64,000 nucleotides of DNA, taken from contig CAZJFL010000001.1 of assembly GCA_964545575.1 (NCBI GenBank), forward strand, positions 69,878 to 133,877. Reading direction: 5' to 3'. Source of the stretch: an uncultured Planctomycetales bacterium. Lineage in GTDB: Bacteria > Omnitrophota > Gorgyraeia > Gygaellales > Profunditerraquicolaceae. Position 1 is the stretch's first letter; every line of letters starts with the position of its first letter. Positions 3,994-35,467 of the stretch are shown in pieces. Below the pieces are notes generated by a model. The model was not told the DNA's origin. It worked only from the letters and a program-made list of their open reading frames with translations, and did not search any database. The translations under genes were made by a program, and so were the position numbers.

Positions 3994-4003
3994 CAGATAT
4001 GAA

Positions 4004-5048: not shown

Positions 5049-5107
5049 GTATGGCGGCGCCGAAGCCAGAGGCTTCGGCATCCGCCATGTTTTTCAAGAG
5101 AAAAACA
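5049..5107 (-). repeat. 59-bp perfect direct repeat, copy 2
   Basis: Identical to 3857-3915 and positioned immediately 3' of tRNA-Ser(CGA). Confidence 0.85.
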
Positions 5108-5196
5108 TGGCGGAGAGTGGAGGATTTGAACCTCCGTACCTCTTACGAGGTAACGCGCTTTCGAGGCGCGCGCTTTCAACCACTCAGCCAACTCTC
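5107..5196 (-). tRNA. tRNA-Ser(CGA), class II
   Basis: GGAGAGTTGGCTGAGTGGTTGAAAGCGCGCGCCTCGAAAGCGCG-[variable arm]-GGAGGTTCAAATCCTCCACTCTCCGCCA, with anticodon loop CUCGAAA. CCA is encoded. Confidence 0.85.
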
Positions 5197-5381
5197 CAAA
5201 ATTTAAACGGACCCGTTTTGTTTACTTAAGCCGCTTCTCGAAGACCGCAAGCGCCGAATTCATATTGTCGGGGCTTCGATGAAATCCCCCATAGTCGGCA
5301 TTATCATCTTCAATCGCGCAGTCTGCAATACCAGCGTATTTACATATCCATTCGACCGCTTCACGCATGCCGTCGATACCA

Positions 5382-6461
5382 TCACCCTCCGGGTTCGGGT
5401 CCTGTTTTTACATAGGTTCTTTTGCCAAATGAATTACTACGGCCATCAAGACAAGTTCCGCAAACCGGTAAGCTTTTTCTATCCGCATGTATTTTTCTTC
5501 TAAGATTTTGGTATTTTCCATTTCTCCAGATATCCCGTAAATCGTCTCGGAAAATATTTCCCATTATATGAAAAGATGCTAGATCGCTACAGCAAGGAGT
5601 TACATCGCCGTTAGAATTGATGACCGTGTAATACTCGATAGAACTACAGGAATTCGGTACTGCGACCTCGTTTACAAAAAGTCCGTCTTTTTCAACGTAG
5701 TTTCTATTAAACGAGGTATCGCGGGGAAAAATCTCTTTTGCTACTTTCTGAAAGTCAGAGCCATCAAAACCGATACCGACCGCTTTTTCCCTATATACAT
5801 CAGCATGCAGTTTTCCGGACATCTCTAACATCATTTGGCGTTGATGTTCGTTATGTTTCATGACAATAAATTGTAATTCGACTATCGGCTTTCTAGATTT
5901 CAGCTCTTTTTTTGCTTGATAGATTAATTCAAATCCTTTTATAACTGCGCTAAAATCAGCTCCTTTTCGGTATTTGTTATAGGTTTCGTGATCCGCGCCA
6001 TCAAGGCAGATAATTAAGTAATATAGGCCGCTTTTAACAACATATTTACAATATTCGATATCCTTAAAAAAAGTACCGTTCGTACATATGCGGATTCTAA
6101 TTCCAGATTCAGTGGCGTATCTAACCATTTGTAGAATATCTTTATGAAGGAAAGGTTCGCCAAGATTCCATAAATCTATATGGGCAATATAAGATCTAAC
6201 TTCATCAACGATTTTTTTAAATTCCTGCAGGCTCATTGATCTTGCTAGCCGATTTAATTTATTCGTACCTGTGGGGCATGCGATACAGCGGAGGTTACAA
6301 AGATTTGTCGGCTCTATAACAAGATAAAAAGGCAGAGGGGAAAATAGCGACTTTCCCGTTAATCCTTTTAATAATTTATATAAAATAATGTCAAAACGTC
6401 TTTTCTTGATTATTAAACAAAGCGCTTCTATTTTTTCAGTGAGGTATTTCATGAAATTCAT
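5382..6461 (-). CDS. Radical SAM protein with C-terminal SPASM/twitch domain
   Basis: CNLRCIACP (CxxxCxxC) in the N-terminal part and a Cys-rich C-terminal region (TPCCSDLASFH...CGTCLDG). A 47-codon continuation in the +1 frame immediately after the stop suggests a possible frameshift or a small downstream ORF. Confidence 0.8.
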   Translation of the reverse strand: MNFMKYLTEKIEALCLIIKKRRFDIILYKLLKGLTGKSLFSPLPFYLVIEPTNLCNLRCIACPTGTNKLNRLARSMSLQEFKKIVDEVRSYIAHIDLWNLGEPFLHKDILQMVRYATESGIRIRICTNGTFFKDIEYCKYVVKSGLYYLIICLDGADHETYNKYRKGADFSAVIKGFELIYQAKKELKSRKPIVELQFIVMKHNEHQRQMMLEMSGKLHADVYREKAVGIGFDGSDFQKVAKEIFPRDTSFNRNYVEKDGLFVNEVAVPNSCSSIEYYTVINSNGDVTPCCSDLASFHIMGNIFRDDLRDIWRNGKYQNLRRKIHADRKSLPVCGTCLDGRSNSFGKRTYVKTGPEPGG

Positions 6462-6514
6462 TATTTTGTTTGAAAGTTTATTTCTATTATTTTACCATTA
6501 TTTCGGTAGCCCTA

Positions 6515-6556
6515 CGATTTCGAGGCGCGCGCTTTCAACCACTCAGCCAACTTTCC
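6515..6556 (-). repeat. Diverged copy (40/42) of the 5' half of tRNA-Ser(CGA), positions 1 to about 42, upstream of the radical-SAM gene
   Basis: ggaaagttggctgagtggttgaaagcgcgcgcctcgaaatcg versus tRNA ggagagttggctgagtggttgaaagcgcgcgcctcgaaagcg. Similarity ends after the anticodon loop. Confidence 0.75.
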
Positions 6557-6589
6557 AAAGCTATAAATTTTCCTTATCAGAATGTATTG

Positions 6590-6646
6590 TGGTGCTAGCA
6601 CCACGCTCGCTATTTTGCTTGTTGCAAAATTACGCTCGCTTTGGTG
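6590..6646 (-). ncRNA. Candidate structured RNA element, copy B, next to tRNA-Ser(TGA)
   Basis: GGTGC...CGCTCGCT-[hairpin ATTTTGC/GCAAAAT]-CGCTCGCT-TTGGTGCC. It has the same architecture as 2623-2686, with covarying stems. Confidence 0.4.
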
Positions 6647-6681
6647 CCGAAAATTTTTTCTTTATCAGAAAAAATTTTCGG
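6647..6681 (-). terminator. AT-rich perfect hairpin abutting the tRNA-Ser(TGA) 3' end
   Basis: CCGAAAATTTTTTC-tttatcag-AAAAAATTTTCGG. Confidence 0.4.
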
Positions 6682-6765
6682 AGGCGGAAGGATTCGAACC
6701 CTCGATGGGCGTAAACCCACAACGGTTTTCAAGACCGCCGCATTCAACCGCTCTGCCACGCCTCC
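6679..6765 (-). tRNA. tRNA-Ser(TGA), class II
   Basis: GGAGGCGTGGCAGAGCGGTTGAATGCGGCGGTCTTGAAAACCGT-[variable arm]-GAGGGTTCGAATCCTTCCGCCTCCG, with anticodon loop CUUGAAA. Confidence 0.85.
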
Positions 6766-14264: not shown

Positions 14265-14741
14265 TCAAATCGCGGTTGATAAAATATTTTTATCGATAAA
14301 TGCGCTGATTTTTCCGGCGATTTCTTCTTTCTTTTTTTCTAATGCCCCGCTTAAGCCCTCGCCAAAAGAAGTATCCCCGACCTGTATGCCGGCTACATAG
14401 ATCCTGGCCTTCAGGTTAAAATTTTTAGAAAACTCAAAAATATCTTTCAGGCTAAGCTCATGGGTGGACATGGCCGGGTTTTTAAGATTATACTCTGCAT
14501 CTTTTAATTCAAATATCTTAAGTTCGCCGGGGGATAAACCTGCGTTTACGCCGTCGATAAGAAGGACGCTATCATAATCCTGCATCCGATGCGCCAGATC
14601 AAAGCTGGCTATCCCGAAATCAAGATAAGCTACTCCTTCTCTCTGATAAAATTTAAGGAGAGATTCTAGAATTATTATTCCGATTCCGTCGTCTCTCCTT
14701 AAGGTATTACCTATGCCGATGATAGCTACTTTTTTAGACAA
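14265..14741 (-). CDS. Hydrogenase maturation endopeptidase (HycI/HyaD family)
   Basis: MSKKVAIIGIGNTLRRDDGIGI is the N-terminal signature of this family. It lies immediately downstream of the hydrogenase large subunit. Confidence 0.8.
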   Translation of the reverse strand: MSKKVAIIGIGNTLRRDDGIGIIILESLLKFYQREGVAYLDFGIASFDLAHRMQDYDSVLLIDGVNAGLSPGELKIFELKDAEYNLKNPAMSTHELSLKDIFEFSKNFNLKARIYVAGIQVGDTSFGEGLSGALEKKKEEIAGKISAFIDKNILSTAI

Positions 14742-16086
14742 ATTTTACATCCAATATGTGGGTGGCGCAGGATATGCAGGGGTCATAGGCCCTGGCAAGC
14801 ATCTCTAAATCGAGGGTAATCTCCTCTTTAGTCTTTTTACCGAGTAGTTCGGGAACGATTTTACGCATATCTGCCTCTAGATTCCCCATATTTTGATTTG
14901 TAGGTATCGCACAATTTGCCTTGGTAATATGCCCTGTCTCGTCTATGGAATACTCATGAAACAAGCTGCCCCGCGGGACTTCCACGCAACCGATCCCTGC
15001 GCCAGGCGCATATTTAATTTTATTCATTTCACTTCTTTTCGGCCAGGAGGAAACCACCACTTTGTCTGTATTGAGGCCGTCTTTTAGGATCTTCTCCATT
15101 ATTTTAATCGACTCCTCCAGGCAATGCACCCATTCTACCAGCTGGGCCACGGTATTAAGGTAAGGATTGTGGCACGGCGCATTAAGCCCCAGTTCCTTAG
15201 CCACTGACTTTGCTTGCTTATTGAGCTGGGCGGAATTATTATTAAACCTGGAAAGCGCGCCCACGGCATAAGGCTTGCCGTTGATAGCGGCTATTTTTGC
15301 CCGCGAATAATCTACCACTGTCTCGGTAAAAAGCTTTTTATAATCACTGACTTTTGTTTTTTGCCCGCCGCTTACTACCAGGTCTCCCTCATACATCGCA
15401 TATTCATCATCGCAAGACAACGACATATACTGCGTCGGCCTCTGGAACTCCGGGAACTTAAGTCTCTTAAATATTTTGACCGTTTCTTCCCCGTCTTTAC
15501 GCGCTGCCAGCATCAATTTATATAATTCTTCCAACCCGTCCTTCGACGGCAGCTGCGTCAGCCCTCCGATAACATAGCTGATAGGATGGATATGGCGTCC
15601 GGCAAGGACCTCTCCGGCATAATCGCTCATTTTTTTCATCCGTAAGGCCATCTCAATCACCGGACGGTGCGTTTTAACTAAGGGCATAATGCTTTTTACG
15701 CCTAGTAGATCGGGTGCGACCAGGATATAAATATGCAGGATGTGGCTATCCATCTGCTCGGTATACAAAAGCAGTTTGCGTAGCATCACCGTTTCGCTGG
15801 AAGGCGCTACACCCAGAGCATCTTCGCCGGCTTTGATGCTGGCTAAACTGTGTCCGCAGGCGCAGATGCCGCAGATACGGCTGGTCAGATGCTGGGCTTC
15901 CCAGATTGACCGGCCCACCAGCATAGATTCAAAGAAACGCGGGGATTCGATGACCTGAAATTCGCATTTAGTGAGCTTCCCTTCTTTTACATCCACCACT
16001 ATATTACCGTGCCCTTCCACCCTGGTCAGGTAACGGACGTCTACTTTGACATTCTTGGAATCTATTTTATTTGAACTCCTGGCCAT
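14734..16086 (-). CDS. hydA: [NiFe]-hydrogenase large subunit, group 3b (sulfhydrogenase alpha)
   Basis: N-terminal RICGICxxxH and C-terminal DPCISCATH Ni-Fe ligand motifs. About 450 aa. Confidence 0.9.
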   Translation of the reverse strand: MARSSNKIDSKNVKVDVRYLTRVEGHGNIVVDVKEGKLTKCEFQVIESPRFFESMLVGRSIWEAQHLTSRICGICACGHSLASIKAGEDALGVAPSSETVMLRKLLLYTEQMDSHILHIYILVAPDLLGVKSIMPLVKTHRPVIEMALRMKKMSDYAGEVLAGRHIHPISYVIGGLTQLPSKDGLEELYKLMLAARKDGEETVKIFKRLKFPEFQRPTQYMSLSCDDEYAMYEGDLVVSGGQKTKVSDYKKLFTETVVDYSRAKIAAINGKPYAVGALSRFNNNSAQLNKQAKSVAKELGLNAPCHNPYLNTVAQLVEWVHCLEESIKIMEKILKDGLNTDKVVVSSWPKRSEMNKIKYAPGAGIGCVEVPRGSLFHEYSIDETGHITKANCAIPTNQNMGNLEADMRKIVPELLGKKTKEEITLDLEMLARAYDPCISCATHILDVKFV

Positions 16087-16831
16087 ACTTTTCTCCCAGC
16101 GAATCGTTGTAGAGAGTAAAATTTTGCAGTATCTCTTCCAATTTCAGGCCGTATTTTACTAAAATATCCTTGGCTGCATCTACAGCCGGATTTTCCACCA
16201 ACCCCCGGCAGCCATAACACCTGTTCCCGTTATTCACGCACCAGGAATTACACCCGGCCCTGGTTACCGGGCCCATACATTCCTGGTCTTTTTCGTAGCG
16301 GCAGACATTTTCGTTCATCTTGCATTCCTGACAGACCGCATAATTAGGCACTACGTAAGGCTTGCCCATCAAAATACATTTAATCACAGTAATGACCTCC
16401 GGTATATATACCGGACAGCCGTGGATAAAATAATCTACTTTAACTATTCTGTGCACCGGCATCGCCACAATAGTATTTATTGTATCTTGCCTGGGGCCAT
16501 AGACTCTTTGTTTCGCCACATCTAAAGAGGTGCGATTTTTAACTCCGTTTACCCCGCCGATTGTAGCGCAAGAGCCAAGGGCAACCATTATCTTTGCCTT
16601 TTCCCTGATTTTCTTTATCCGCATTACGTCATGATCGGTAGTAATGGCCCCCTCGATAAAGGCTATATCATAGTCCTCGCCCGCTTCAGACATGATCTCT
16701 CGGAAACTTACGATATCTACGAGCTTGGCAATCTCAAGCAGGGTCAAACCCATATTCGCAAACTGCAGCTGGCAGCCCTCGCAATCCGTGAAATCAAAAA
16801 AAGCGACCTTTGGTTTAGGCTGCTTTTTCAT
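16067..16831 (-). CDS. hydD: [NiFe]-hydrogenase small subunit, group 3 (delta)
   Basis: VAFFDFTDCEGCQLQ proximal-cluster motif plus additional Cys clusters. Confidence 0.85.
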   Translation of the reverse strand: MKKQPKPKVAFFDFTDCEGCQLQFANMGLTLLEIAKLVDIVSFREIMSEAGEDYDIAFIEGAITTDHDVMRIKKIREKAKIMVALGSCATIGGVNGVKNRTSLDVAKQRVYGPRQDTINTIVAMPVHRIVKVDYFIHGCPVYIPEVITVIKCILMGKPYVVPNYAVCQECKMNENVCRYEKDQECMGPVTRAGCNSWCVNNGNRCYGCRGLVENPAVDAAKDILVKYGLKLEEILQNFTLYNDSLGEKYGQEFK

Positions 16832-17681
16832 GGCATTCTCCTTTAAAATTCTTTAACTGGCTGTAGTCAAATACCGGCCCGGACTGGCAAATATAAAGTC
16901 CTTCAACCTGACAATGGCCGCATTTACCTAAACCACAGCGCATCCTTCTTTCCAGCGACACAATGATCTGGTGCTCGGGAATATTTTTATTCAGTAACTC
17001 GCGAATAACAAATCTATACATTATCGGAGGGCCGACCACTACCCCGTAAGTCCTAGCCGGAAAAATATCTACGCCCGGGATTAAGGTGGTAATCAGCCCG
17101 ACGTTGCCCTTCCATTCAGGATCAGCCTTATCTACGGTGCAGTTTAATTTGATTTCCGCCCGTTTCATCCATTCCTTGGTTTCTTCCTGAAATAAAAATT
17201 CCTTAGGCGTTTTGCAACCGATGAGTATTTGCACGTGGCCAAAATCATTTTTATTATAGGTGACATATCTGATCAGCGAGCGTAGCGGCACTATCCCCAG
17301 GCCCCCGGCAACGATAACCAGATCATAGCCGAACATCCGGTCTACGGGGAAACCTTTGCCAAACGGCCCGCGGATGCCGACGATGTCGCCCCGGCCTAAC
17401 TTATGCAATTTATCGGTGAAAACTCCCACATTCCTTACCGTAAGGTCAAAATAACCTTTGTCCGTAGGCGAAGAACAGATAGATATCGGGGCTTCTGCGT
17501 AGCCGAATATGGAGACCATCACAAACTGCCCCGGCTCATGGCCAAGATTGATTTTTCCTTCCAGTTCAATGCGGAAGAACTTTTCTTTCTCGGTAAGCAT
17601 CCTTGACTCCATGATCTTGCCTCTCATCGGCTTATAAGGAGAGGTCTTCATTTTTTCCAGGAGTATTTCTCGGTCAATCAT
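16815..17681 (-). CDS. hydG: Hydrogenase gamma subunit (FAD/NAD(P)-binding oxidoreductase, 2Fe-2S)
   Basis: Ferredoxin-NADP reductase-like fold with a C-terminal CGxGxCGxC (CGLGKCGHCQ). Confidence 0.85.
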   Translation of the reverse strand: MIDREILLEKMKTSPYKPMRGKIMESRMLTEKEKFFRIELEGKINLGHEPGQFVMVSIFGYAEAPISICSSPTDKGYFDLTVRNVGVFTDKLHKLGRGDIVGIRGPFGKGFPVDRMFGYDLVIVAGGLGIVPLRSLIRYVTYNKNDFGHVQILIGCKTPKEFLFQEETKEWMKRAEIKLNCTVDKADPEWKGNVGLITTLIPGVDIFPARTYGVVVGPPIMYRFVIRELLNKNIPEHQIIVSLERRMRCGLGKCGHCQVEGLYICQSGPVFDYSQLKNFKGECHEKAA

Positions 17682-18718
17682 TTTTGCTCTCCCTTTTCAG
17701 CCAGCAGCGCATTCACTGTCTCCACCAAATTAATCTCAGCCATACAGGCCCTGGTGCATCTTCCGCAGCCGGTGCAAAAATAACGGTTGAACTTATCCAC
17801 CGGATATTTGAATTTCCGGTAATACCTGTGCCTTTGCCTGGTGTCGCGGCCTTTGCGGAAATCTTCGCCCCCGGCTACCTTGGCAAAATCATCCATCTGA
17901 CAGGAGTTCCAGATGCGGTAGCGCATCCCTTCATTAAAACTTAAACCCATTTCGTCCATGACGTCAAAGCAGTAACAGGTAGGACAAACGGTGGTGCAAT
18001 TGCCGCAGGCGACACAACGCCTGCCTACATCCTTCCAGACATCCGAATTAAAACGTTTATCGAATGCCTCGTAGACCACAGGTAAAGAAGCATTAAACTC
18101 TTCTTTAAATACTTTTTTCTTAGCCTCTCTAGCGCGTTCGAGGCTAAGCATATCTTTCTCATCCGCTTCCTTAATATAATCTAACCCATGGATGAGCTTT
18201 TCTCCTTTTTCCGAATTGATATGTAAAATAAACTTTTCGCCCAGATCCACCATCATCAAGTCATAGCCACCCCGGGGCACGTGGTTACCCATAGAAGTGC
18301 AATTAGCGAATTTATCGCAATACTCCAGGCACTCTATGCCGATGATGGTCATTTTATCTTTGCGATTCAGGTAATTCGGGTCTTCGGGGCTATCCCTGAA
18401 TACCACATCCATGCATTGGATGCCGGCGATATCGCAGGTATGCACCGCAAAAAGAATATACTCCTCGAACTCTTTGATGGCTTTAGCGGTCTTAAAAGGC
18501 TTAAGCGTAAATTTTAATAATTTTTCTTTTTGGGGAAAATAATATTTCTTGGGAGGCAGTATGGTAGGAATATATTTCAGGGTGATCTCATTTACATCTT
18601 TGACGGGCCTGAAGATAAAAAGGTTTTCTTTTTTCTTTGGCGCATAGAGCCTGGCTCTTTTCTGTAAATGCTGGAGCCATCTATTCAAGTCTTCTTTTTT
18701 TATAGTCGCATATTTCAC
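17678..18718 (-). CDS. hydB: Hydrogenase beta subunit (4Fe-4S protein, AsrA-like)
   Basis: Multiple Cys clusters (CVACGNCTTVCPTCYC; CTGCGRCTRAC). It is the first gene of the hydBGDA order. Confidence 0.8.
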   Translation of the reverse strand: MKYATIKKEDLNRWLQHLQKRARLYAPKKKENLFIFRPVKDVNEITLKYIPTILPPKKYYFPQKEKLLKFTLKPFKTAKAIKEFEEYILFAVHTCDIAGIQCMDVVFRDSPEDPNYLNRKDKMTIIGIECLEYCDKFANCTSMGNHVPRGGYDLMMVDLGEKFILHINSEKGEKLIHGLDYIKEADEKDMLSLERAREAKKKVFKEEFNASLPVVYEAFDKRFNSDVWKDVGRRCVACGNCTTVCPTCYCFDVMDEMGLSFNEGMRYRIWNSCQMDDFAKVAGGEDFRKGRDTRQRHRYYRKFKYPVDKFNRYFCTGCGRCTRACMAEINLVETVNALLAEKGEQK

Positions 18719-25844: not shown

Positions 25845-27629
25845 TTACCACTGGCATCTGATACCCCCCTCGATGGCCCTTCCCGGCTGAGGGATGCCTG
25901 CTATTTCTTCATATTTTACACCGAGGAGGTTGGTAATGTCCAAGAAAATCTGGCCATTCCGATGGATTTTATAAGCGAAATGGCTGTTTAAAATAAACCA
26001 CCCGCCGCGGCCGGGCCTCTCTTTGTAGGTTAATGTCAAACCTTGAATCCCGCAGGGCAGATTAAAGTCTACCATAGCATTGGCCAGGTGGCGAGAATAA
26101 TTCCGTCCATATTTGTATAGGTAGCCGCGGGTATCAGCCTGCTTATTAATATAGGTATAGTTGCAAGACATCTTGATATATTTATTAAATTGCCAGCTAA
26201 AATAGTTTTCTAAACCCAGGACCCCGGTATCGCTTATGTTTTCAGCCTGCCATTTTGCTTGCAGGGGGCTACGCTTTATCCAGTCAATTACATCTATTGC
26301 TTCCCGGAAGAAAAAAGCTGTGCCTAAGGAAAAACCGTCTTTCTTATAGTCATAGCCTAACTGATAATTAACCGATTCCTCTACGCTAAGATTACGGTTT
26401 CCTGCGGTAGTAGGGTCGTTATAATAGAGTTCGGTAAAGGTAGGGATGCGGATACTTCTGGCTATACCCAAAGTTAAACCACTGGCTCCCCCGACTTTAT
26501 ATTTTAAATTTAGTGCGCCGGTATAAGCGGTGTTGAAACCCTCAAAATTATCCATCCGCAAGGACCCGGCCAGAGAAAACCTCTGATTGATATCTTTGTT
26601 GTCGTCAAAAAAGATGCTTTCGTGATTACGATAGTGCTTGCCTAAGTTAGTGGAATGGATCTCTTCCCTGCCGTACTCAAAGCCCAGGCCCGCTCTCCCC
26701 AGAAAGCCGGTTTGTTTCTGGAAATAAATATTAGGGGTATAGATATCGGTGCGGTGCTGATTAAGATAACGGCTGCGCACTTCTGTTTTATCGAGCATAA
26801 ACTTATCGTAATGCCGGCGCCATAAAAAATTCGGCTTGATGATTAACCCTTCATTTTCAGAAAGCAAGCCCGCCTCCAAAAGATAAGTCTTGGTCCATTC
26901 TTCTGAAGGGTATCCTAAGCCCGGGGTATAAAAATCAAATGCCCCGAACTCCTTATCCTGATAGCCAAAGTCTAAATTAACTGCGCCGCATGGCACATCC
27001 AGCGAAGAGCTGAAAGTGGCGGTATATTTTTTAAAATCCGTATCGTAATGAAACCCGTCTGATTGCGCATATTCGGAGGAAACACGGAAACTTAAGTCTT
27101 TTATTTTCTCCGTAAAGCTGAATAGCCCGGCCTTGGTATCAAAAGAGCCGTAGCTACCTTCTAAAATTAGCTCTTTCTGTTGCGGTTTTTTAGTCAGGAA
27201 ATTGATTGCTCCGCCGATGGCGTCAGGCCCGAATAGTGAAGAACTAATGCCGGGGATCAAATCAATTCTTGCAATATCCGCTTTGGTTAAGGGAATGTCT
27301 GAATTATGATGCCCTGTCTGGGGGTCGTTGATACGCTGGCCATCGATAAGGACTAAAACTCCCTGAAAGGTTGAACCCCTCAGGGAAAAATCTGTCTGGA
27401 TGCCTTCGCGGAGAGAACGGCTCTGTAGGTCTAGCGGCAGGAGAGACAAAGATTCTATTGGCGAGGCATAAAAATCTTCTACTTTCAGGGTAAAGGTATG
27501 CGAAAAATAAGCCTTTTCCTTTGCCACCACTATGCGCTCTAAATCCCGGGGCGGAATTTGGGCGCCATAGGCAAGGCCGGGCAAGATAAGAAAAATAAAA
27601 AATAAACCGCACCAATTTATCTTTGCCAT
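25845..27629 (-). CDS. TonB-dependent outer-membrane receptor
   Basis: Signal peptide, plug domain (LDGQRINDPQTGHHN) and a Tyr/Gly-rich beta-barrel ending in an aromatic residue. Confidence 0.8.
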   Translation of the reverse strand: MAKINWCGLFFIFLILPGLAYGAQIPPRDLERIVVAKEKAYFSHTFTLKVEDFYASPIESLSLLPLDLQSRSLREGIQTDFSLRGSTFQGVLVLIDGQRINDPQTGHHNSDIPLTKADIARIDLIPGISSSLFGPDAIGGAINFLTKKPQQKELILEGSYGSFDTKAGLFSFTEKIKDLSFRVSSEYAQSDGFHYDTDFKKYTATFSSSLDVPCGAVNLDFGYQDKEFGAFDFYTPGLGYPSEEWTKTYLLEAGLLSENEGLIIKPNFLWRRHYDKFMLDKTEVRSRYLNQHRTDIYTPNIYFQKQTGFLGRAGLGFEYGREEIHSTNLGKHYRNHESIFFDDNKDINQRFSLAGSLRMDNFEGFNTAYTGALNLKYKVGGASGLTLGIARSIRIPTFTELYYNDPTTAGNRNLSVEESVNYQLGYDYKKDGFSLGTAFFFREAIDVIDWIKRSPLQAKWQAENISDTGVLGLENYFSWQFNKYIKMSCNYTYINKQADTRGYLYKYGRNYSRHLANAMVDFNLPCGIQGLTLTYKERPGRGGWFILNSHFAYKIHRNGQIFLDITNLLGVKYEEIAGIPQPGRAIEGGIRCQW

Positions 27630-27688
27630 AAAGGCATTATAGCGGGTGCGGCATAACTGTCAACTTGAAAATTATATTTGGTTTACGA

Positions 27689-28648
27689 TTACCGACAGTG
27701 CACTACGTCCCCGGCCATCACCTTCTGGGTTAATCCGGAATCCCTCCTTAAGAGCAGGCCTCCGTCGGTATCAATACCCACTGCCTCCCCCTCCATGTGT
27801 GCCTCATGGGAAATAACCTTTATCCTCCTGCCGAGAGTCAGATTAAAAATATGCCATTTATCAATGATCACCTTGGCTGTTTTTTTCTGAAAAAGCAGGT
27901 AATTAAATTCTATGCGGCGCAATATCTCCTGAAGCAAAACAATGCGGTTTACTTCTTCCCTCTTTTGCTCCTTTAATGAGGTAGCGCCTTCTACCAGTGC
28001 TTTCTTATCGTTGTTGACGTTTAAGCCTATGCCGATAACGATAAAACGGATTTCGTCGGTCTCGGCACTCAATTCAGTCAGTATTCCGCCGACTTTTTTA
28101 TTATGGATCAGGACGTCGTTAGGCCATTTAATCTTGGCCTCTAATCCGCAGGTTTCCTTTATTGCCTCGCAGATACTTACCGCAGCCATAAGCGTCAGGA
28201 TCGGCGATTGCGCCGGCATAATCTTAGGCCTTAAGACCAAAGATAAATATATACCCTGATATTTAGGCGAAATCCATGCCCTGCCGAGCCTGCCCTTGCC
28301 TCTGGTTTGCGCTTCGGCTACCACCACCGCCCCTTCCGGGCAGCCGCTAATCCCCATCTGGGCTGCGATGCCCATAGTCGAGGGCACCGTTTCCAGATAA
28401 CAGATTTTTCTACCGATGAACTTTGTGTTCAGGCCGTGGCTTATCTCACCCGCCAGGAGCCTGTCCGGCGAAGAAAGTAACTGATAACCTAAGTGCGGGA
28501 CAGCCACAATGTCATAGCCAGTATCCCTTAATTCCTGGATATGCTTCCATAATGCCTGGCGGCTTATCCCTAAACGTTCGCTTATTTCTTCTCCGGAGGC
28601 GTATTCCGATTTTTTCTTCAGGAATTCAAGGATTTTATCCCGTATCAT
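27689..28648 (-). CDS. birA: Bifunctional biotin-protein ligase / biotin operon repressor
   Basis: N-terminal HTH (GEEISERLGISRQALWKHIQEL) plus a BPL catalytic domain with GRGRLGRAW. Confidence 0.9.
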   Translation of the reverse strand: MIRDKILEFLKKKSEYASGEEISERLGISRQALWKHIQELRDTGYDIVAVPHLGYQLLSSPDRLLAGEISHGLNTKFIGRKICYLETVPSTMGIAAQMGISGCPEGAVVVAEAQTRGKGRLGRAWISPKYQGIYLSLVLRPKIMPAQSPILTLMAAVSICEAIKETCGLEAKIKWPNDVLIHNKKVGGILTELSAETDEIRFIVIGIGLNVNNDKKALVEGATSLKEQKREEVNRIVLLQEILRRIEFNYLLFQKKTAKVIIDKWHIFNLTLGRRIKVISHEAHMEGEAVGIDTDGGLLLRRDSGLTQKVMAGDVVHCR

Positions 28649-28653: not shown

Positions 28654-29031
28654 TCAGGAAGGATTTTTCTTGCGGTAATCTTCGATAGCTGACTTTAGAG
28701 CTTCTTCCGCTAAAACCGAGCAGTGCATCTTAACCGGTGGCAGCCCCCCTAAAGCCTCTGCTACTGCCTTATTGGAAATCTCTAATGCCTCTTTGATGTT
28801 TTTGCCCTTGATCATTTCCGTAACCATGGAGCTGGTAGCTATGGCTGCGCCGCAGCCGAAGGTTTTAAATTTAGCGTCGGTAATTATCCCATCTTTAACT
28901 TTTATATAGAGCTCCATGATGTCTCCGCAGATAGGATTGCCGACCTTGCCCCTGCCGTCGGGATTTTCGATTTCTCCGACATTGCGCGGATGCAGAAAGT
29001 GATCCATTACTTTTTCGCTATAATTCTCCAT
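28654..29031 (-). CDS. Fe-S cluster scaffold NifU/IscU
   Basis: GNPICGD...FKTFGCGAAIA...HC conserved Cys triad. Confidence 0.85.
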   Translation of the reverse strand: MENYSEKVMDHFLHPRNVGEIENPDGRGKVGNPICGDIMELYIKVKDGIITDAKFKTFGCGAAIATSSMVTEMIKGKNIKEALEISNKAVAEALGGLPPVKMHCSVLAEEALKSAIEDYRKKNPS

Positions 29032-29032
29032 T

Positions 29033-30193
29033 TTATCCTTTATAAAGCGGCGACATCTTGCGCAGTTTTTCTACCACCGACGGCAATTGCTCTAATAAAT
29101 AATCAACATCTTCTTTGCTAGTCCATCTGCCTAAAGTAATACGCAATGAACCATGAGCAATCTCATGGGGCAGGCCGATGGCTAATAATACGTGCGAAGG
29201 CTCTAAGGAACTAGAAGTGCAGGCAGAGCCGGTAGAAGCGGCAATTCCCAGCATATCCAGGCTAAGCAGTATCGACTCTCCTTCAATATACTTTATGGAA
29301 AAGTTTACGTTATTAGGCAGCCTTTTTGTGGCGTGGCCGTTTAGATAAACCTCAGGAATCCTCTTGGGGATTTCTGCAATCAGCCTATCGCGCAAACTGC
29401 TCTGTGCCTTCGCTTCCTCTTCCATCTTGTCGCTACAAAGTTCTATCGCCTTTGCTAACCCCACTATCCCCGGTGTATTATGCGTCGAGGCCCGCCTGTC
29501 TCTTTCCTGGTCTCCGCCGTGTAAAAACCTTTCAATGCGCGTGCCTCGTCTGATGTATAAAGCGCCAACGCCTTTCGGACCGTAAAATTTATGGGCAGAG
29601 AGGGATAACAAATCTACGCCCAGAGTATTTACGTTAACCGGTATATGTCCTACGGTCTGCACTGCGTCGCTATGAAAATAAATCCCTTTTTCCCGGGCGA
29701 TTTTGCCGATATCCGCTATCGGCTGGATAGTGCCGATTTCATTATTGGCGTGCATCACTGAAATAAGAATGGTTTTATCGGTAATTGCCTTTTTAATCTT
29801 GGCGGGATCAACCAGGCCGTATTTATCCACCCCCACAACCGAAATTTCAAAGCCCCTCTTCTCTAAAAACTTGGCCGGCTCACCAACCGCATGGTGCTCA
29901 ATAGCCGAGATAATGATGTGATTTCCTTTTTTCTCGTTTGCATAAGCAACACCTTCGAGAGCAAAATTATTTGCTTCGGTTCCCCCGGAGGTAAAAACGA
30001 TCTCCTCGGGTTTTGCGCCGAGGAAGGAAGCGACTTTTTCGCGGGCATCCTCGATTGCCTTTTTAGCTTCCTGTCCGTAAGTATGGATACTGGAGGGATT
30101 GCCGAACAGCTCAAAGAAATAAGGCTCCATCGCCTTGATCACTTCGGGGTCGGTGGGGGTAGTGGCAGCGTAATCTAAATATACTCTTTTCAT
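29033..30193 (-). CDS. Cysteine desulfurase (NifS/IscS)
   Basis: PLP-Lys motif SAHKFYGPKG and active-site SGSAC. Confidence 0.9.
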   Translation of the reverse strand: MKRVYLDYAATTPTDPEVIKAMEPYFFELFGNPSSIHTYGQEAKKAIEDAREKVASFLGAKPEEIVFTSGGTEANNFALEGVAYANEKKGNHIIISAIEHHAVGEPAKFLEKRGFEISVVGVDKYGLVDPAKIKKAITDKTILISVMHANNEIGTIQPIADIGKIAREKGIYFHSDAVQTVGHIPVNVNTLGVDLLSLSAHKFYGPKGVGALYIRRGTRIERFLHGGDQERDRRASTHNTPGIVGLAKAIELCSDKMEEEAKAQSSLRDRLIAEIPKRIPEVYLNGHATKRLPNNVNFSIKYIEGESILLSLDMLGIAASTGSACTSSSLEPSHVLLAIGLPHEIAHGSLRITLGRWTSKEDVDYLLEQLPSVVEKLRKMSPLYKG

Positions 30194-30984
30194 TTCTTAA
30201 ATACCTCATTCATGCTTCCGGTACGATAACCTTCCAAATCAACAGTGATGTAATTATATCCTAAACTCTTCAGCCTATCCAGTATAAAATCCCTTTTCTT
30301 TATCAGCCCCGGTATATCATATTTAGGCACTTCTATACGGCAGAGGCCGTGGTAATGCCTTAATCTCACCTGAGCAAAACCTTGTTTTCTTAAAAAATTT
30401 TCCGCGCGGTTAATCCGGGATAATAAAAGAGGCGATATTTTTATACCGTAGGGAATCCTTGAAGCCAGGCAGGCCAACGACGGCTTATCTGCCGTAGGCA
30501 GCCCTAAGGCTTTGCTTTGTTTGCGGATATCCTGCTTGGTAAAACCGGCCTCTTGTAAAGGAGAACGGACTTTTAATTCAATTCCTGCGATATTGCCCGG
30601 ACGGAAATCTCCTAAGTCAGAAACATTGCTGGCGTCAGCGATAAAGTTTAATTTATTTTTTTGGGCAAGGCCTTTTAAGCGGCTAAAAAGTTCCCTTTTA
30701 CAAAAATAACAGCGGTTAACCGGATTAGAAACGAACTTTTCGTTTTTTAATTCGCGGGTGTGGATGATTTTATGCCGCATCCTAAGTTTACGCGCCATCT
30801 TTTTCGCAAAAACCAGCTCTTCGGCGGGGTAAGTCGCGGAATCCGCCGTAACCGCCAAAACCTTATCTCCCAAAGCTTCTTGCGCCACCTTAAGAAGAAA
30901 AGTACTATCCAGGCCTCCGGAATAAGCGACCAGAACCGAACCCATATTTTTTAAGATTTTCTTTAGCTTCTCTAACTTATTCAT
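30190..30984 (-). CDS. PP-loop ATP pyrophosphatase, LarE-like sulfur transferase family
   Basis: The true start is MNKLEKL (ATG at 30982-30984). It carries the SGGLDS PP-loop and a CYFCK Cys motif. The track ORF start at 31119 reads through the upstream intergenic region. Confidence 0.7.
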   Translation of the reverse strand: MNKLEKLKKILKNMGSVLVAYSGGLDSTFLLKVAQEALGDKVLAVTADSATYPAEELVFAKKMARKLRMRHKIIHTRELKNEKFVSNPVNRCYFCKRELFSRLKGLAQKNKLNFIADASNVSDLGDFRPGNIAGIELKVRSPLQEAGFTKQDIRKQSKALGLPTADKPSLACLASRIPYGIKISPLLLSRINRAENFLRKQGFAQVRLRHYHGLCRIEVPKYDIPGLIKKRDFILDRLKSLGYNYITVDLEGYRTGSMNEVFKK

Positions 30985-31096
30985 AAATAAGGAGTGTCTG
31001 TAATTGAAGTGAGTTTGTGTGAGTTTTGCGGGTGGCGCGAAGTGTTTTAAAGGAGCATGATGCGACGAGAAACACGAAGCGACAGGACCCGCAAAA

Positions 31097-31504
31097 CTAA
31101 AAACGAACCTCCATTGCACGGGTAGGACACACCTTCACGCACAACTCGCAGGCGATACATTTATTATCATAAAAATGGACTTTGCGCGTAATCGGATCTA
31201 TCGCTAAAGCCCCGGTAGGGCAAATGGGCACGCAGACTCCGCAGTCAGTGCATTTGACTTCGTTACGGATGACATCCTGACTTAAAGGCTGGATCCGCAC
31301 GCCACAGGACTCTAAATATTTCATACCTTGATTAAAGTTTTTATCCTCACCGGCGAGCTCCAAAACCATCAACCCTTCTTCCTGCGGCGTAACATAAGCC
31401 TTGAGGATATTAAACTGCAGGTCATACTCCTTGACTAGCTTATAAATAATCGGCTGGTCCACCAGCCGGTGCGGAAAATGCAGAACTACGCGTTTGGAAA
31501 TCAT
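31097..31504 (-). CDS. NIL-domain / 2x[4Fe-4S] ferredoxin protein (MA1822-like)
   Basis: The start MISKRV overlaps the nfu stop (ATGA). It has [12 protein letters not shown] and [12 protein letters not shown] motifs. It is the partner of the COG1900 protein in homocysteine biosynthesis. Confidence 0.7.
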
Positions 31505-31734
31505 ACTGCAATCACCTCTTTTACTTGCGGGACTTCCTGCTTTATAATCCGCTCGATACCCATCTTTAAAGTTATCTGGCTCATCGGGCAACACCCGCAG
31601 GCCCCGGTAAGTTTTACTTTGACTATACCATCATCGCTAACATCTACTAATTCCACATCTCCGCCATCAGCAGCAAGCATCTGTTTTACTTTCTCTAAGA
31701 CCTTCTCTACTTGTTCGCGCATGTTATCCTCCAC
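31501..31734 (-). CDS. NifU-like C-terminal (Nfu) Fe-S carrier domain protein
   Basis: 77 aa with [10 protein letters not shown], probably using a GTG start. Confidence 0.7.
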
Positions 31735-31853
31735 TAATGATCATGTGAATTAATGCACACGATGATTAGCAAAGCTAATCATCGTGTGTAAATTCAGGCA
31801 GAGACTTGCGTTCGCTCACGCTCCGCAAGTCTCGCCTTCATTTAATTATATCA

Positions 31854-33053
31854 CTAAATAGCCCTCTCTTTCAAGGGCTTAAAGGCATAGCCTGAATCTG
31901 CCCCGGGTAAAGCTGCCACGGGTTCGGTGAGCATAAAATCACGCTTTTCAATCCAGGCTTTCAATTCCTGCGCGATCTCCCGCGCCTTGGAATAACTGGA
32001 GAGGTTTCCGGTAGGGATCTCCTTGCCCTGCACCTTGATTTTACCGGATTTTAACTGGCTGTAACTAACCTCGGCTAAACTACCCGGAATCATCTGGGGA
32101 TAACTCTGGCTGTAATCTACTACCTGAGCATAAATCTCCTCGTCTTTGGCTGCTGCGTATTTAACCGTCTCTTCATCTAATATAGGTATGGGAACGCCAA
32201 TACCCACGGTCAGGGTTACGCCGTAACCTAACATACTCGTCCCCACCAGCCATTCGGGTTTCATCTGCTTTAAGTCTCCGATTACTGCCAGTGTCCCGGC
32301 AGGGGCTTGGGGGATACCGTTATCCGTCCTCTTTACTCCCGGATTATGCTGGGTGCCGTGCCAGGCGACATACCCGATACCTCCGCCTAACCAGATCTTG
32401 GTACCCACTCCGATAGTCTTGTAATTTGGGTCCTTTAACAAAGGGGAAAGCTGGCCGGCAGAGCAATAATTAGCATTACCCAGATGCGGCTTTAATACGC
32501 CCATATAAGTATAAATTATTTTATCCGAAAGATTCACCGCCACATTATAGTTCTGATAGCAGTTACGGATATTAAAAAGTACGGCCTCATTCAAATCCTT
32601 GATATTGATCAGCGTTTCCAGTTTCTTGCGCGGATAACAGTCTGTGCCGTAAGCACTCGCCTCCAGGCGGATATCCTTGCCGGCAACCAACTCCTGAATT
32701 ACGTGCCCGCCGCCGTATTTGAATTCTCCCGGGAAGACTTTATTGCGCGGGTCATCGTCGGGCATGGCAGTTGCGCCCAGATAAAAATCCATGGCCGCAA
32801 AACCGGTATAAACCGGCACATCGTTTAGTTTACATATTCCGCCGCCTAATTTTATTCGAGGGCGAGAGTGGCCGATATTAAAATAAGCGCCGGATGAACA
32901 CATCGGCCCGAAAGTTCCGGTAGTGACCACGTCTACTTCCTCTGCCGCCTTAGCCGAGCCTTTTTTAGCCACTAGGTCAATGATTTCTTCCGCCGTAACT
33001 ATCACGGCTTGGCCTTTTTTAATCTTCTCATTAATCTCTTTAATCGTCCTCAT
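31854..33053 (-). CDS. COG1900/DUF39 homocysteine-biosynthesis protein (MA1821-like)
   Basis: 399 aa with an N-terminal VDVVTTGTFGPMCSSGA region, characteristic of DUF39 sulfide-incorporating enzymes. Confidence 0.8.
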   Translation of the reverse strand: MRTIKEINEKIKKGQAVIVTAEEIIDLVAKKGSAKAAEEVDVVTTGTFGPMCSSGAYFNIGHSRPRIKLGGGICKLNDVPVYTGFAAMDFYLGATAMPDDDPRNKVFPGEFKYGGGHVIQELVAGKDIRLEASAYGTDCYPRKKLETLINIKDLNEAVLFNIRNCYQNYNVAVNLSDKIIYTYMGVLKPHLGNANYCSAGQLSPLLKDPNYKTIGVGTKIWLGGGIGYVAWHGTQHNPGVKRTDNGIPQAPAGTLAVIGDLKQMKPEWLVGTSMLGYGVTLTVGIGVPIPILDEETVKYAAAKDEEIYAQVVDYSQSYPQMIPGSLAEVSYSQLKSGKIKVQGKEIPTGNLSSYSKAREIAQELKAWIEKRDFMLTEPVAALPGADSGYAFKPLKERAI

Positions 33054-33077
33054 TATTCTTTCCTCCTTACCACCTAT

Positions 33078-33998
33078 TTAAACAAATAAATCGGTAGAAA
33101 GATACCTCTCTCCGGTATCCGGTAAAATTACCACGATAAGTTTGCCTTTATTCTCCAGCCGTTTTCCCACCTGGACTGCTGCCCAGGCCGCGGCACCCGA
33201 AGAAACTCCGGCCAATATCCCCTCTTCTTTGCTCAACCGCTGCGCCGTGGCTTTGGCATCGTCGTAACTGACCTGAATAATCTCATCGATAATTTTACGG
33301 TTCAGCACCTCCGGCACAAAGCCGGCGCCGATACCCTGAATTTTATGCGCTCCCGCCTTACCCCCGGATAATACCGGGGAATCCTTCGGCTCTACGGCCA
33401 CTGCCTTAAAAGAAAGCTTCTTCTGTTTGATTACCTCTGAAATACCGGTAATGGTACCGCCGGTGCCTACGCCGGACACTAAAATATCTATTTTACCTCG
33501 CGTATCCTCCCAGATCTCTATTGCCGTGGTGCGGCGGTGAACCTCCGGGTTTGCCAGATTCTGAAACTGCTGCAGCAGAAGATAACGCTTATCTGTCTTG
33601 GCTAAATCTTGCGCCCTTCTGACGGAGCCCGACATACCCTCGGCTCCCGGAGTAAGAATAATTTCCGCTCCGAAGGCAGAAAGAAGCTGGCGGCGTTCGA
33701 TACTCATCGTCTCCGGCATGGTCAGGACTAACTTATAACCCTTGACTGCACAGACGAAAGCCAAGGCAATCCCGGTGTTACCCGAAGTCGGTTCAATAAG
33801 AATAGTATCTTTTTTAATCTTACCTTCAATCTCGGCCTTCTCAATCATGCTCAAGCCGATCCTGTCCTTGACCGAAGAGCAGGGATTAAAGGACTCTAAT
33901 TTGGCAACCACCTCTGCGTTGCACTCTTTGGTAATCCGGTTTAAACGCACCAGAGGAGTATTTCCTATGAGTTTAGTGATATCTTTGGCAATCTGCAT
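33078..33998 (-). CDS. cysK: Cysteine synthase A (O-acetylserine sulfhydrylase)
   Basis: PLP-Lys SVKDR and GNTG/GTGGT glycine loops. Confidence 0.9.
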
Positions 33999-34012
33999 AC
34001 TCTCTCCTTGAA

Positions 34013-34453
34013 TTAAATCTGATAAATAAAAGCGGGGTCCTGCCTCTTTATTTTCTTTGCCAAATCTTCAAAGGTAACGCTGTCGATAATTCCAGAGGTG
34101 GACTCAGCAACCTTAGTCCAGATATCCCTAAAGGCGCATTTATAGATATCGCTGCAGCCCCGGTATTTCTTATCCACGCAAGCAATGGGTTCAATGGGCC
34201 CATCAATAAACCTGATCACCTCACCCAGTCTTATCTCTGACGGTGCCTTAGCTAAAAGATAACCCCCTATTTTGCCGCGCCGGCTTTCGACAAAGCTGCC
34301 TCTTTTTAAATCCAGAAGTATCTGCTCCAAAAATTTAACCGGGATATCCGCCCGCTTAGCCAGCTCATGAATAGCCACCGGGCTCTCCCCGTAATGCAAG
34401 GCTAAATCCAGAATCGTCTTTAAGGCGTAATCCCCTTTATAAGTAATACGCAT
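34013..34453 (-). CDS. Rrf2-family transcriptional regulator (IscR/CymR-like)
   Basis: N-terminal wHTH ([11 protein letters not shown]...[19 protein letters not shown]) and a C-terminal Cys cluster. Confidence 0.85.
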
Positions 34454-34510
34454 AGTTATATCCTATAATCTCTATCAACATAGTAGAGTATACTGAGAAA
34501 ACGTATTTTG

Positions 34511-35287
34511 TCAAGTATTTTTTTTAATTAACTCCTTGGCTACCTTTTCTCCGGCAAGAAGCATTCCGCCGAAAATCGGCCCCATGCGCGGGCCCCCGAA
34601 TACCGCGTTTGCGCACATGCCGCAGGCATATAACCCGGGGCAGATTTCTTTTGAGTTCTTTACAATCGTATCCTCTCCTACCTCTGCCCACATAGACTGT
34701 TCACCCATGATTTTTCCGGTTTTTGTCTTCAGCCGGATGCCGGATTTCTTCTCAATAATCCGGGCTATCTCCGCAGGATGGCCGGTGGCATCCACCACGA
34801 ATTTAGCGCGCATACTAATGGGGTCAACATGCAGATCGGCTATTTCAACCGCTGTCCAGTTTAATACCAGCCCCACTACTTTCTTATTGCGCACCATCAC
34901 GTCTTCGGCGCTGATAAGATTAAAAATTTTCAAACCCGCCTTTACCGCCTTAGAGCAAATAGTTGAAACTGATTCGATGGAATCCGCTAAATAATAGCCT
35001 CGGGCGTAGCGTCTGCTTTTAATGCCAAACTCATCCAGTATCCTTCTGGCTTTCTCCTGGACCACAATTTCATTAAACATCATACCCCCGCCCCACATGC
35101 CGCCGCCGACGGAAAGCTTTCTTTCAAAAAGCACTACTTTTTTTCCTGCCTTGGCTAAATAATAACCGCAAACCATACCTGCCGGGCCGGCGCCGACAAT
35201 AGCCACCTCAACATCAAGTGCTGCAACCAGCTTATCTTTATAAGATTCTATGATTGCATTGGAAATCACTATTTCATCTAACTTCAT
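34511..35287 (-). CDS. thi4: Thiazole synthase Thi4 (archaeal/sulfide-dependent type)
   Basis: FAD motif [10 protein letters not shown] and the GMWGGGMMF region. It lies downstream of a TPP riboswitch. Confidence 0.85.
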
Positions 35288-35359
35288 TTTAGTCTCCTCC
35301 CTTAACCCTTAATAAATAGGAAACCCTTATGCCAAATACATAAGGGTTATACACATTCA

Positions 35360-35455
35360 CTCCTCCTTTTCCTACGCTGGTATTATCCAGATCAGGTTAT
35401 CAGGGTCACCCCGCTTAAGCGGGGACTCTCAGGCCGTTATCACGACCTCCCCATA
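35360..35455 (-). promoter_or_regulatory. TPP (THI-box) riboswitch in the thi4 leader
   Basis: On the minus strand: GGGGUGACCCUGAUAACCUGAUCUGGAUAAUACCAGCGUAGGAA plus an upstream CUGAGAG, the two conserved THI-element blocks. Confidence 0.75.
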
Positions 35456-35467
35456 ATCTTATTTATT

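Follow-up and report, generated by a model that had tools for sequence, protein, structure and literature searches.

What a homologue of the sulfur transferase LarE does among genes for sulfur assimilation and iron-sulfur (Fe-S) cluster assembly, with no lactate racemase (lar) genes seen beside it, is the question raised by a 5.8-kb locus in a 64,000-nucleotide (nt) stretch of DNA from an uncultured bacterium of the Omnitrophota (contig CAZJFL010000001.1, positions 69,878 to 133,877). This whole stretch is called the window here, and positions are counted from its first letter. The reading that we prefer, at a probability of roughly 0.6, is that the locus is an expanded iscRSU-like operon of an anaerobic member of the Omnitrophota, in which a genuine cluster-type LarE is recharged by the cysteine desulfurase NifS and acts on a nickel-pincer substrate. 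The locus is a tight array with every gene on the minus strand. Its genes, called by Pfam and NCBIfam profile scans of the window proteins, are listed from the regulator onward.

34013-34453, minus strand: Rrf2-family regulator (PF02082, E value 1.6e-35, 122.6 bits; TIGR00738 superfamily, 116 bits, cutoff 73.3)
33078-33998, minus strand: CysK, O-acetylserine sulfhydrylase (cysteine synthase A) (TIGR01139, 467.6 bits, cutoff 351)
31854-33053, minus strand: COG1900/DUF39 (HcyBio) protein, L-aspartate-semialdehyde sulfurtransferase-type subunit (PF01837, 506.8 bits, profile positions 1-349 of 349)
31501-31734, minus strand: Nfu, Fe-S carrier of the NifU C-terminal-domain type (PF01106, 95 bits; CxxC at C46/C49)
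31097-31504, minus strand: ferredoxin with a NIL domain and two [4Fe-4S] sites (PF09383, 58.9 bits, plus Fer4 families; eight cysteines, two CxxCxxCxxxCP motifs)
30190-30984, minus strand: LarE homologue, PP-loop ATP pyrophosphatase (TIGR00268, 319.2 bits, cutoff 150)
29033-30193, minus strand: NifS cysteine desulfurase (TIGR03402, 591.7 bits, cutoff 530.75)
28654-29031, minus strand: NifU/IscU-type Fe-S scaffold with C35, C60 and C104 (TIGR03419, 215.1 bits, cutoff 187.9)
27689-28648, minus strand: BirA, biotin ligase with a helix-turn-helix domain (HTH_11, BPL_LplA_LipB and BPL_C), syntenic in all close relatives

The scans, together with reading of the gene junctions, bear out the gene identities, coordinates and overlaps given in an earlier note that was made from the sequence alone. 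NifS and NifU both match at equivalog level. The larE stop and the nifS start share the letters ATGA, a 4-nt overlap, and the nfu stop and NIL-ferredoxin start likewise share ATGA. The cysK gene starts 14 nt past the rrf2 stop, and birA starts 5 nt past the nifU stop and is part of the same array. The genes mnmA and nadA follow a few kilobases downstream, in the window as in its relatives.

Residues of the LarE homologue and its predicted class

Residues 3 to 259 of the LarE homologue cover positions 2 to 259 of the 259 positions of TIGR00268. Near-full-length matches were obtained to Lactiplantibacillus plantarum LarE (5UDQ, E value 4.5e-43; C176A variant 6B2O, 1.3e-43) and to the archaeal LarE of Methanococcus maripaludis (8CNZ, 1.8e-22). 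An AlphaFold2 model, built with an alignment termed A2, has a predicted local distance difference test score (pLDDT) of 85.6 and a predicted template modeling score (pTM) of 0.80. With this model as query, all 50 matches listed by Foldseek for the PDB were L. plantarum LarE, with template modeling (TM) scores of 0.74 to 0.84. The homologue is 46 to 51% identical to LarEs encoded next to larB and/or larC, compared with about 35% for L. plantarum LarE and about 29% for 8CNZ. Its nearest homologues, at 66 to 79% identity, include proteins that NCBI names Candidatus Omnitrophica or Omnitrophota.

The PP-loop reads SGGLDS at residues 22 to 27, of which S22, G23, G24, D26 and S27 are invariant in a 14-sequence alignment (A1). 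The residues S175, R207 and R209 align with Ser180, Arg212 and Arg214 of L. plantarum LarE, the phosphate ligands of its substrate (PMC9283937), pyridinium-3,5-dicarboxylate mononucleotide (P2CMN). In A1, R207 and R209 are invariant and S175 is nearly so (at least 90%). The fold, the PP-loop and this Ser/Arg/Arg phosphate site are thus held in common with L. plantarum LarE.

The sulfur-donating site is different. L. plantarum LarE, encoded in a larA-E operon, has a single cysteine, Cys176, that is lost as dehydroalanine, and has tryptophan and alanine at the CxxC positions. The window protein, with no lar genes nearby, has Ala171 at the position of this sacrificial cysteine, one residue before C172, and a three-cysteine cluster site. 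In the alignment, C92 and C95 (NRCYFCK) match the CxxC of 8CNZ and C172 (LACLASR) matches its third cysteine (NRCYNCK/NRCYFCK and TCMATR/ACLASR). All three are invariant in A1 and A2, and every member of a 23-sequence alignment keeps them except the L. plantarum reference.

The corresponding three cysteines of Thermotoga maritima LarE hold a [4Fe-4S] cluster and show the one-residue shift from L. plantarum Cys176 (Chatterjee et al., PMC9283937). That enzyme keeps all of its own sulfur atoms and is catalytic with L-cysteine and IscS, the persulfide sulfur of the desulfurase being handed to the LarE cluster in vitro (PMC9283937). Compared through the description in that paper and through 8CNZ, the window and T. 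maritima proteins share the SGGxDS motif, the CxxC...C triad, the one-residue shift and the P2CMN phosphate ligands. They differ in a fourth cysteine, which lies adjacent to the motif in T. maritima and is C215 (GLCRIEV) here. C215 is clade-specific, being nearly invariant in the Omnitrophota LarE group (A2), whereas L. plantarum LarE and the LarB/LarC-linked LarEs have alanine at its position.

On these residues, the LarE homologue is predicted to be of the [4Fe-4S]-dependent, non-sacrificial class. The earlier note had found the context of larE unexplained. A LarE of the same class has, however, been shown to take sulfane sulfur from a cysteine desulfurase, and on that mechanism coupling with nifS, nifU and nfu is to be expected.

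LarE homologues also occur as fusions, namely to LarB (AIRC), RNase H-like RVT_3 (four representatives), His_Phos_1, YjeF_N (NAD(P)HX epimerase), an EF-Tu-like GTPase and a TFIIB-type zinc ribbon (proteins P0125, P0128, P0137, P0139, P0150, P0174, P0200, P0209 and P0258), some of which may be gene-calling fusions.

Conservation of the larE neighborhood

One hundred LarE loci were compared, from 19 one-genome-per-species contigs, 80 metagenome loci found by a LarE alignment search and two exact-protein look-ups (L001 and L021); two later look-ups, L105 and L106, stand outside the 100-locus counts. The loci were annotated by tblastn with the window proteins and with LarB and LarC sequences drawn from the loci themselves, the LarB queries being confirmed by PF00731 and NF033503 (281.7 bits) and the LarC queries by PF01969. 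Within 3 kb, 27 of 102 LarE sequences, the window included, have LarB and/or LarC, 33 have sulfur or Fe-S genes and 15 have neither; the other 27 are on contigs too short to class. NifS is found within 3 kb of larE in 17 of the 100 loci (immediately downstream in 10), MnmA in 14, the NIL-ferredoxin in 11 and COG1900 in 9, and Rrf2, CysK, Nfu, NifU, ThiI, ThiF and Thi4 occur near larE in some.

In the clade of the window, the usual gene order is (Rrf2)-CysK-Nfu-COG1900-NIL-ferredoxin-LarE-NifS-BirA-TonB receptor-MnmA-NadA (L001, L002, L023, L024, L105 and L106). The window is a variant of this order, with nfu moved to between COG1900 and the NIL-ferredoxin, nifU present and hairpin-rich spacers on both sides of the moved segment. 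The most constant neighbor is NifS, which lies immediately downstream of larE in 10 of 12 clade loci, with the same 4-nt overlap in L001 and L027; in L028 a DNA methylase gene stands between the two, and L004 keeps COG1900, NIL-ferredoxin and LarE with NifS missing. In nine clade loci (L001 to L004, L022 to L024, L105 and L106) larE directly follows COG1900/NIL-ferredoxin, and L027 and L028 have other genes between larE and one or both of these. In L021, L025 and L026, Nfu-LarE-NifS is kept, but neither COG1900 nor NIL-ferredoxin stands immediately upstream of larE. L025 and L026 are short contigs; in L021, which alone among them has a complete 10-kb flank, both genes are missing from the whole of it. 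Because these three loci keep Nfu-LarE-NifS alone, NifS and Nfu are the most faithful partners of LarE, and COG1900 is an optional module of the island.

The earlier note had proposed to check whether the gene adjacency is conserved; close Omnitrophota relatives keep it, and it is found again in a few further lineages of LarE. COG1900/NIL-ferredoxin stand next to LarE in L059, with the order Rrf2-COG1900-NIL-ferredoxin-LarE-NifS-NifU-MnmA-NadA, and in L047/L087, while L040 and L067 have LarE-Rrf2-NifS-NifU-MnmA-NadA. No description of this gene context of LarE was found in the papers searched, and searches on Omnitrophota with lactate racemase and on COG1606 found nothing.

Three loci outside the Omnitrophota tie larE to cysteine or sulfur regulation independently. 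In L007 (3492-3938) and L010 (1242-1688), from a Bacteroidota and a Bacillota metagenome-assembled genome, an Rrf2 gene is divergent from larE with cysK just beyond, and larE and a ThiI-NifS-ThiF operon converge in L005 and L010. Two further observations concern the relatives. Directly upstream of cysK-nfu-COG1900 in L106 (1062-6711) are genes for GlutR, porphobilinogen deaminase, TP_methylase, ALAD and glutamate-1-semialdehyde aminotransferase and for a 238-amino-acid NIR_SIR protein, and these siroheme/tetrapyrrole and NIR_SIR genes suggest a sulfite-to-sulfide module on the same island. After nifS in L021 (12084-13118) and L026 lies a gene of the AIRS/AIRS_C family (344 amino acids), which scores below cutoff for HypE (90.9), ThiL (71.6) and SelD (49.4).

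The regulator and the comparison with iscRSU operons

The Rrf2-family protein has three cysteines, C92, C100 and C106, with the spacing C-x7-C-x5-C, within the part of the protein that in IscR and NsrR binds the cluster; the cysteines compared with them in IscR are C92, C98 and C104. The protein scores below the equivalog cutoffs for IscR (TIGR02010, 95.9 bits, cutoff 207.55) and CymR (99.1 bits, cutoff 195), and we therefore assign it to the Rrf2 family and no further. Of the IscR-like Rrf2 regulator described in the earlier note, the Rrf2 domain with three cysteines stands, but the IscR equivalog level is not reached. Rrf2 comes first and the desulfurase and a U-type scaffold last, with mnmA and nadA downstream, and in this the array presumably resembles operons of the iscRSU type as well as two arrangements of Firmicutes, Rrf2-cysteine desulfurase-mnmA and nifS-nadA. 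It differs from them in the five extra genes (cysK, COG1900, nfu, NIL-ferredoxin and larE) between regulator and desulfurase and in a regulator that falls short of the IscR and CymR equivalogs.

Proposed route of sulfur

In the scheme that we propose, a cluster-type Rrf2 regulator would head genes that make or use reduced sulfur and depend on Fe-S clusters. CysK would convert sulfide to cysteine, and the COG1900 protein with the NIL-ferredoxin would turn aspartate semialdehyde and reduced sulfur into homocysteine. NifS would take sulfur off cysteine as a persulfide, and NifU and Nfu would assemble and hand over [4Fe-4S] clusters. LarE would hold its cluster on C92, C95 and C172 and would adenylate a carboxylate of its substrate at the PP-loop. 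The NifS persulfide would then give a non-core sulfide to the open iron site of the LarE cluster, and LarE would pass this sulfide to the substrate, yielding a thiocarboxylate in repeated turnover.

If this scheme is right, the locus offers natural genomic support for the recharging of LarE by a desulfurase, which so far has been seen only in vitro with a heterologous Escherichia coli enzyme. The 4-nt overlap of larE and nifS would fit translational coupling, and members of the clade share the arrangement. Many anaerobes place larE in sulfur and Fe-S islands (nifS, nifU, nfu, mnmA, cysK, COG1900) and not with larB and larC, which matters for the genome mining of nickel-pincer enzymes through lar adjacency. 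For annotation, the label "sacrificial" is wrong for most LarE homologues.

Probable substrate and the lar genes

The most likely substrate of the LarE homologue is P2CMN, of the nickel-pincer pathway, and larB and larC probably lie elsewhere in the genome. Comparison of the window clade (17 sequences) with the LarB/LarC-linked LarEs (27 sequences) found 64 positions conserved with the same residue in both and no discriminating position, and there is therefore no sequence evidence for an altered substrate. A separate paralogous subfamily for the LarEs of sulfur contexts was considered and rejected: neighbor-joining trees are star-like, the other sulfur-context groups interleave in part with LarB/LarC-linked ones, and no residue discriminates.

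One lineage (L047, L102, L103 and L104) combines the sulfur-type neighborhood with a lar gene. Its array runs ThrC, LarC, two small genes with no Pfam or NCBIfam match, TilS, (EamA), Rrf2, CysK, COG1900, NIL-ferredoxin, MnmA, LarE and a ThiI-like gene. LarC lies about 9 kb upstream of larE and matches TIGR00299 at equivalog level (209 bits, cutoff 90). The ThiI-like PP-loop protein carries an NFACT-R_2 domain, and the one array holds four PP-loop enzymes. The ThiI-like gene is followed by one for an FtrD-like protein in L047 and L102 and then, in L047, by Thi4. Because this lineage has larE in a sulfur island together with a dispersed LarC, it is uninformative that short flanks lack LarB and LarC, and a sulfur-type neighborhood of LarE is compatible with nickel-pincer cofactor synthesis from dispersed lar genes. 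Many genomes are reported to lack larA while having larB, larC and larE, and users of the cofactor other than LarA have newly been described (PMC11796402, PMC13524815).

A number of points weigh against the preferred reading. A tblastn search of the window with 12 LarB and LarC queries gave no match better than an E value of 0.79, and inspection of the open reading frames (ORFs) by eye, without a formal search, revealed no LarA; the absence of LarA, LarB and LarC from the window, which the earlier note had pointed out, holds to this extent. LarB and LarC were likewise not found in the flanks, of up to 10 kb on each side, of L001, L002, L004, L021, L023, L027 and L028, nor in those of L105 and L106 as judged by precomputed Pfam labels of called genes instead of tblastn. 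The larger clade that holds the window in the neighbor-joining tree (about 33 sequences) has no member adjacent to LarB or LarC, and no nickel-pincer-using enzyme was identified. What the analysis itself shows are gene identities, motifs, predicted fold, overlaps and synteny; the cluster-dependent mechanism and the desulfurase as sulfur source come from the literature, and the role of NifS as the in vivo donor, the cotranscription of the genes, cluster binding by the LarE homologue and its substrate are inferred. Both desulfurase genes of T. maritima lie far from larE (PMC9283937), so that adjacency of larE and a desulfurase gene is no general rule; in the window, the start of nifS overlaps the stop of larE, and the array also contains nifU and nfu.

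Elsewhere in the window (14265-18718, minus strand), genes for a cytoplasmic [NiFe]-hydrogenase of four subunits (large, small, FAD/NAD and Fe-S) and for its maturation protease were recognized by eye, the enzyme being similar to the sulfhydrogenase-type group 3b. The organism that carries these genes therefore uses nickel.

The COG1900/NIL-ferredoxin pair

In a published two-subunit system, a COG1900 protein and a NIL-ferredoxin combine aspartate semialdehyde with reduced sulfur to give homocysteine, with genetic support in methanogens and Desulfovibrio (PMC12068725, PMC5764234). COG1900 carries a persulfide on a conserved cysteine in vivo, its sulfur donor is unsettled, and COG2122 is required in Desulfovibrio vulgaris (PMC5764234). 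The earlier note had seen this homocysteine-forming pair in the window, and the published system is indeed matched, by a full PF01837 domain in one protein and by PF09383 with two CxxCxxCxxxCP motifs in the other, the two genes being parted only by nfu. The window COG1900 protein has 399 amino acids and cysteines at 52 (GPMCSSG) and 139. C52 is comparable in position to Cys54 of Methanosarcina acetivorans MA1821, a comparison made by position and not by alignment to MA1821. Likeness to MA1821 and its ferredoxin partner MA1822, and to the DUF39 pathway of Desulfovibrio, lies in the complete COG1900 domain, the adjacent ferredoxin and the cysteine near 52 to 54. The window differs from M. acetivorans in having no C-terminal CBS domain and in the nfu gene embedded in the pair. 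A COG2122 gene was not evident among the cluster genes in the family scans, which included no COG2122 query on the window. Since the persulfide of the COG1900 cysteine needs a donor, there is room for NifS, with or without LarE, as its supplier.

Alternative explanations

A possible explanation, though one markedly less probable than a NifS-recharged LarE of the nickel-pincer pathway, is that the adjacency reflects only shared regulation and inherited gene order, the island being an Rrf2 regulon for sulfur and Fe-S functions with NifS in a housekeeping role and in no special relation to LarE. In favor of this, the island is variable: COG1900 is present or absent, nfu has moved, nifU occurs in some loci, and a DNA methylase gene has entered in L028. 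Siroheme and sulfite-reductase-like genes stand upstream in L106, other PP-loop sulfur enzymes occur near LarE (MnmA in 14 loci, ThiI and TilS in a few), and the larE of T. maritima is distant from both of its desulfurase genes. Against this variability stand the constancy of NifS immediately downstream of larE in the window clade, the 4-nt overlap of the two genes in several relatives, and a published biochemical reason for a direct interaction of LarE with a desulfurase (PMC9283937).

It is doubtful that the LarE homologue has another job, in Omnitrophota and in some further anaerobic lineages whose genomes would lack larB and larC, either thiolating a different carboxylate or acting as a NifS-fed relay that loads COG1900 in place of the COG2122 of Desulfovibrio and Methanosarcina. 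The placement of larE directly after COG1900/NIL-ferredoxin in the window, in nine clade loci, in L059 and in L047/L087 would fit such a role, as would the failure to find LarB or LarC in the window or in the flanks of its relatives, the window clade without a LarB/LarC-adjacent member, and the unsettled donor of COG1900, for which COG2122 is required in D. vulgaris (PMC5764234) and was not seen in this cluster, no query for it having been run. However, L021, L025 and L026 keep Nfu-LarE-NifS without COG1900 upstream (over a full 10-kb flank in L021 only), L004 keeps COG1900/NIL-ferredoxin/LarE without NifS, and the L047 lineage has LarC in an array of the same neighborhood. The P2CMN phosphate ligands are conserved, and no residue sets the clade apart from LarB/LarC-linked LarEs. 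COG1900 is also within 3 kb of larE in just 9 of 100 loci; with 91 loci lacking it there, and with the three loci just named, a dedicated COG1900-LarE module is weakened as a candidate, and the suggestion in the earlier note that LarE could feed COG1900 finds little by way of a dedicated link. Were LarE nonetheless to have this other job, a widespread LarE clade would gain a new role, and the COG1900 homocysteine pathway its missing sulfur donor.

A sacrificial LarE, giving up the sulfur of its own cysteine and being consumed in the reaction, as the earlier note had it and as the name of TIGR00268 ("ATP-dependent sacrificial sulfur transferase LarE") and the NCBI labels of relatives suggest, is very improbable: alanine aligns with L. 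plantarum Cys176, C172 with the CxxC of C92 and C95 makes up the cluster triad common to 8CNZ and T. maritima LarE, and the family name is inherited from the first characterized member, not from this subclass.

Promoter-like sites, inverted repeat and hairpin spacers

The intergenic elements of the array, and a putative start site, are the following.

34487-34514, minus strand: promoter-like TTGACA-16-TATACT, 33 nt upstream of the rrf2 ATG, matching the consensus in 11 of 12 hexamer bases
31735-31853, minus strand: COG1900-nfu spacer of 119 nt with two strong stem-loops, by folding against shuffles
31022-31098, minus strand: perfect 12-bp inverted repeat in the gap between the NIL-ferredoxin gene and larE

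The promoter-like site before rrf2 is a candidate operon start, and such sites are no more numerous in the region than expected from shuffles. A perfect 12-of-12 sigma-70 consensus, TTGACA-16-TATAAT, is present at 27636-27663 (minus strand), just upstream of a TonB-dependent receptor gene (25845-27629) that comes after birA and stays syntenic with the cluster throughout the close relatives.

The arms of the inverted repeat, AGTTTTGCGGGT and ACCCGCAAAACT, are at 31087-31098 and 31022-31033, with 53 nt between them. The repeat that the earlier note had placed before larE is real and nonrandom, but the gap measures 112 nt, not 113. With up to one mismatch, the 12-mer has three matches in the window (the two exact arms and one with a single mismatch), where shuffles lead one to expect 0.44. 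The folding energy of the gap as RNA is -27.9 kcal/mol, and shuffles give -13.15 +/- 2.44 (z, -6.05). After the stem comes CACACAAACUCAC, with no U-tract, and the loop is 53 nt. A terminator scan did not report the repeat, and no Rfam family matches there. In relatives the NIL-ferredoxin/larE junction has gaps of about 0 to 20 nt, and the repeat is not conserved; L003 and L023, with longer gaps, have unrelated GC-rich hairpins. A conserved regulatory element or terminator was rejected on its absence from relatives, the missing U-tract and the lack of an Rfam match, and a dispersed repeat was rejected, the arm (up to one mismatch) matching its own two copies and one further window site. We read the inverted repeat as an intercistronic RNA hairpin specific to the lineage, which may serve the stability or the processing of the transcript or be left over from an insertion. 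It stands where the homocysteine module meets the larE-nifS module.

The hairpins of the COG1900-nfu gap are much stronger than that of the larE gap (-57.1 kcal/mol; z, -9.19), and one of their stems, at 31756-31788, is perfect over 15 bp. The upstream edge of this spacer and the last 21 nt of COG1900 are overlapped by a promoter-like site with an extended TG, TTGAAA-18-TATAAT (31845-31874, minus strand). The spacer is missing in relatives, in which nfu is upstream of COG1900, and its hairpins thus coincide with a local gene rearrangement.

At a distance from the array, identical perfect 15-bp hairpins, TCCGCCATGTTTTTC and GAAAAACATGGCGGA, lie at 3879-3912 and 5081-5114, at the ends of two tRNA-Ser genes. 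Between them is a 395-amino-acid ORF (4004-5191) of homing-endonuclease type by eye, and five tRNA genes are found within 2718-6765.

The upstream thi4 gene

Upstream of the array is a thiamine gene with its own control elements.

34511-35287, minus strand: thi4 (TIGR00292, 318 bits), sulfide-dependent type, DATGH with histidine
35322-35348, minus strand: terminator-like hairpin between the thiamine pyrophosphate (TPP) aptamer and thi4
35352-35463, minus strand: TPP riboswitch aptamer (RF00059, 60.6 bits, gathering score 54.3)

Having its own TPP riboswitch and terminator-like hairpin, thi4 is a regulatory unit apart from the Rrf2 operon. A link of LarE to thiamine synthesis, which the earlier note had also raised, is unnecessary, given a sulfide-dependent thi4 under its own riboswitch. 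Yeast THI4 has a sacrificial cysteine where the Thi4 encoded here has the histidine of DATGH. Judged by these residues, the window appears to encode catalytic versions of both enzymes best known for a self-sacrificed cysteine, Thi4 with its histidine and LarE with its cluster site.

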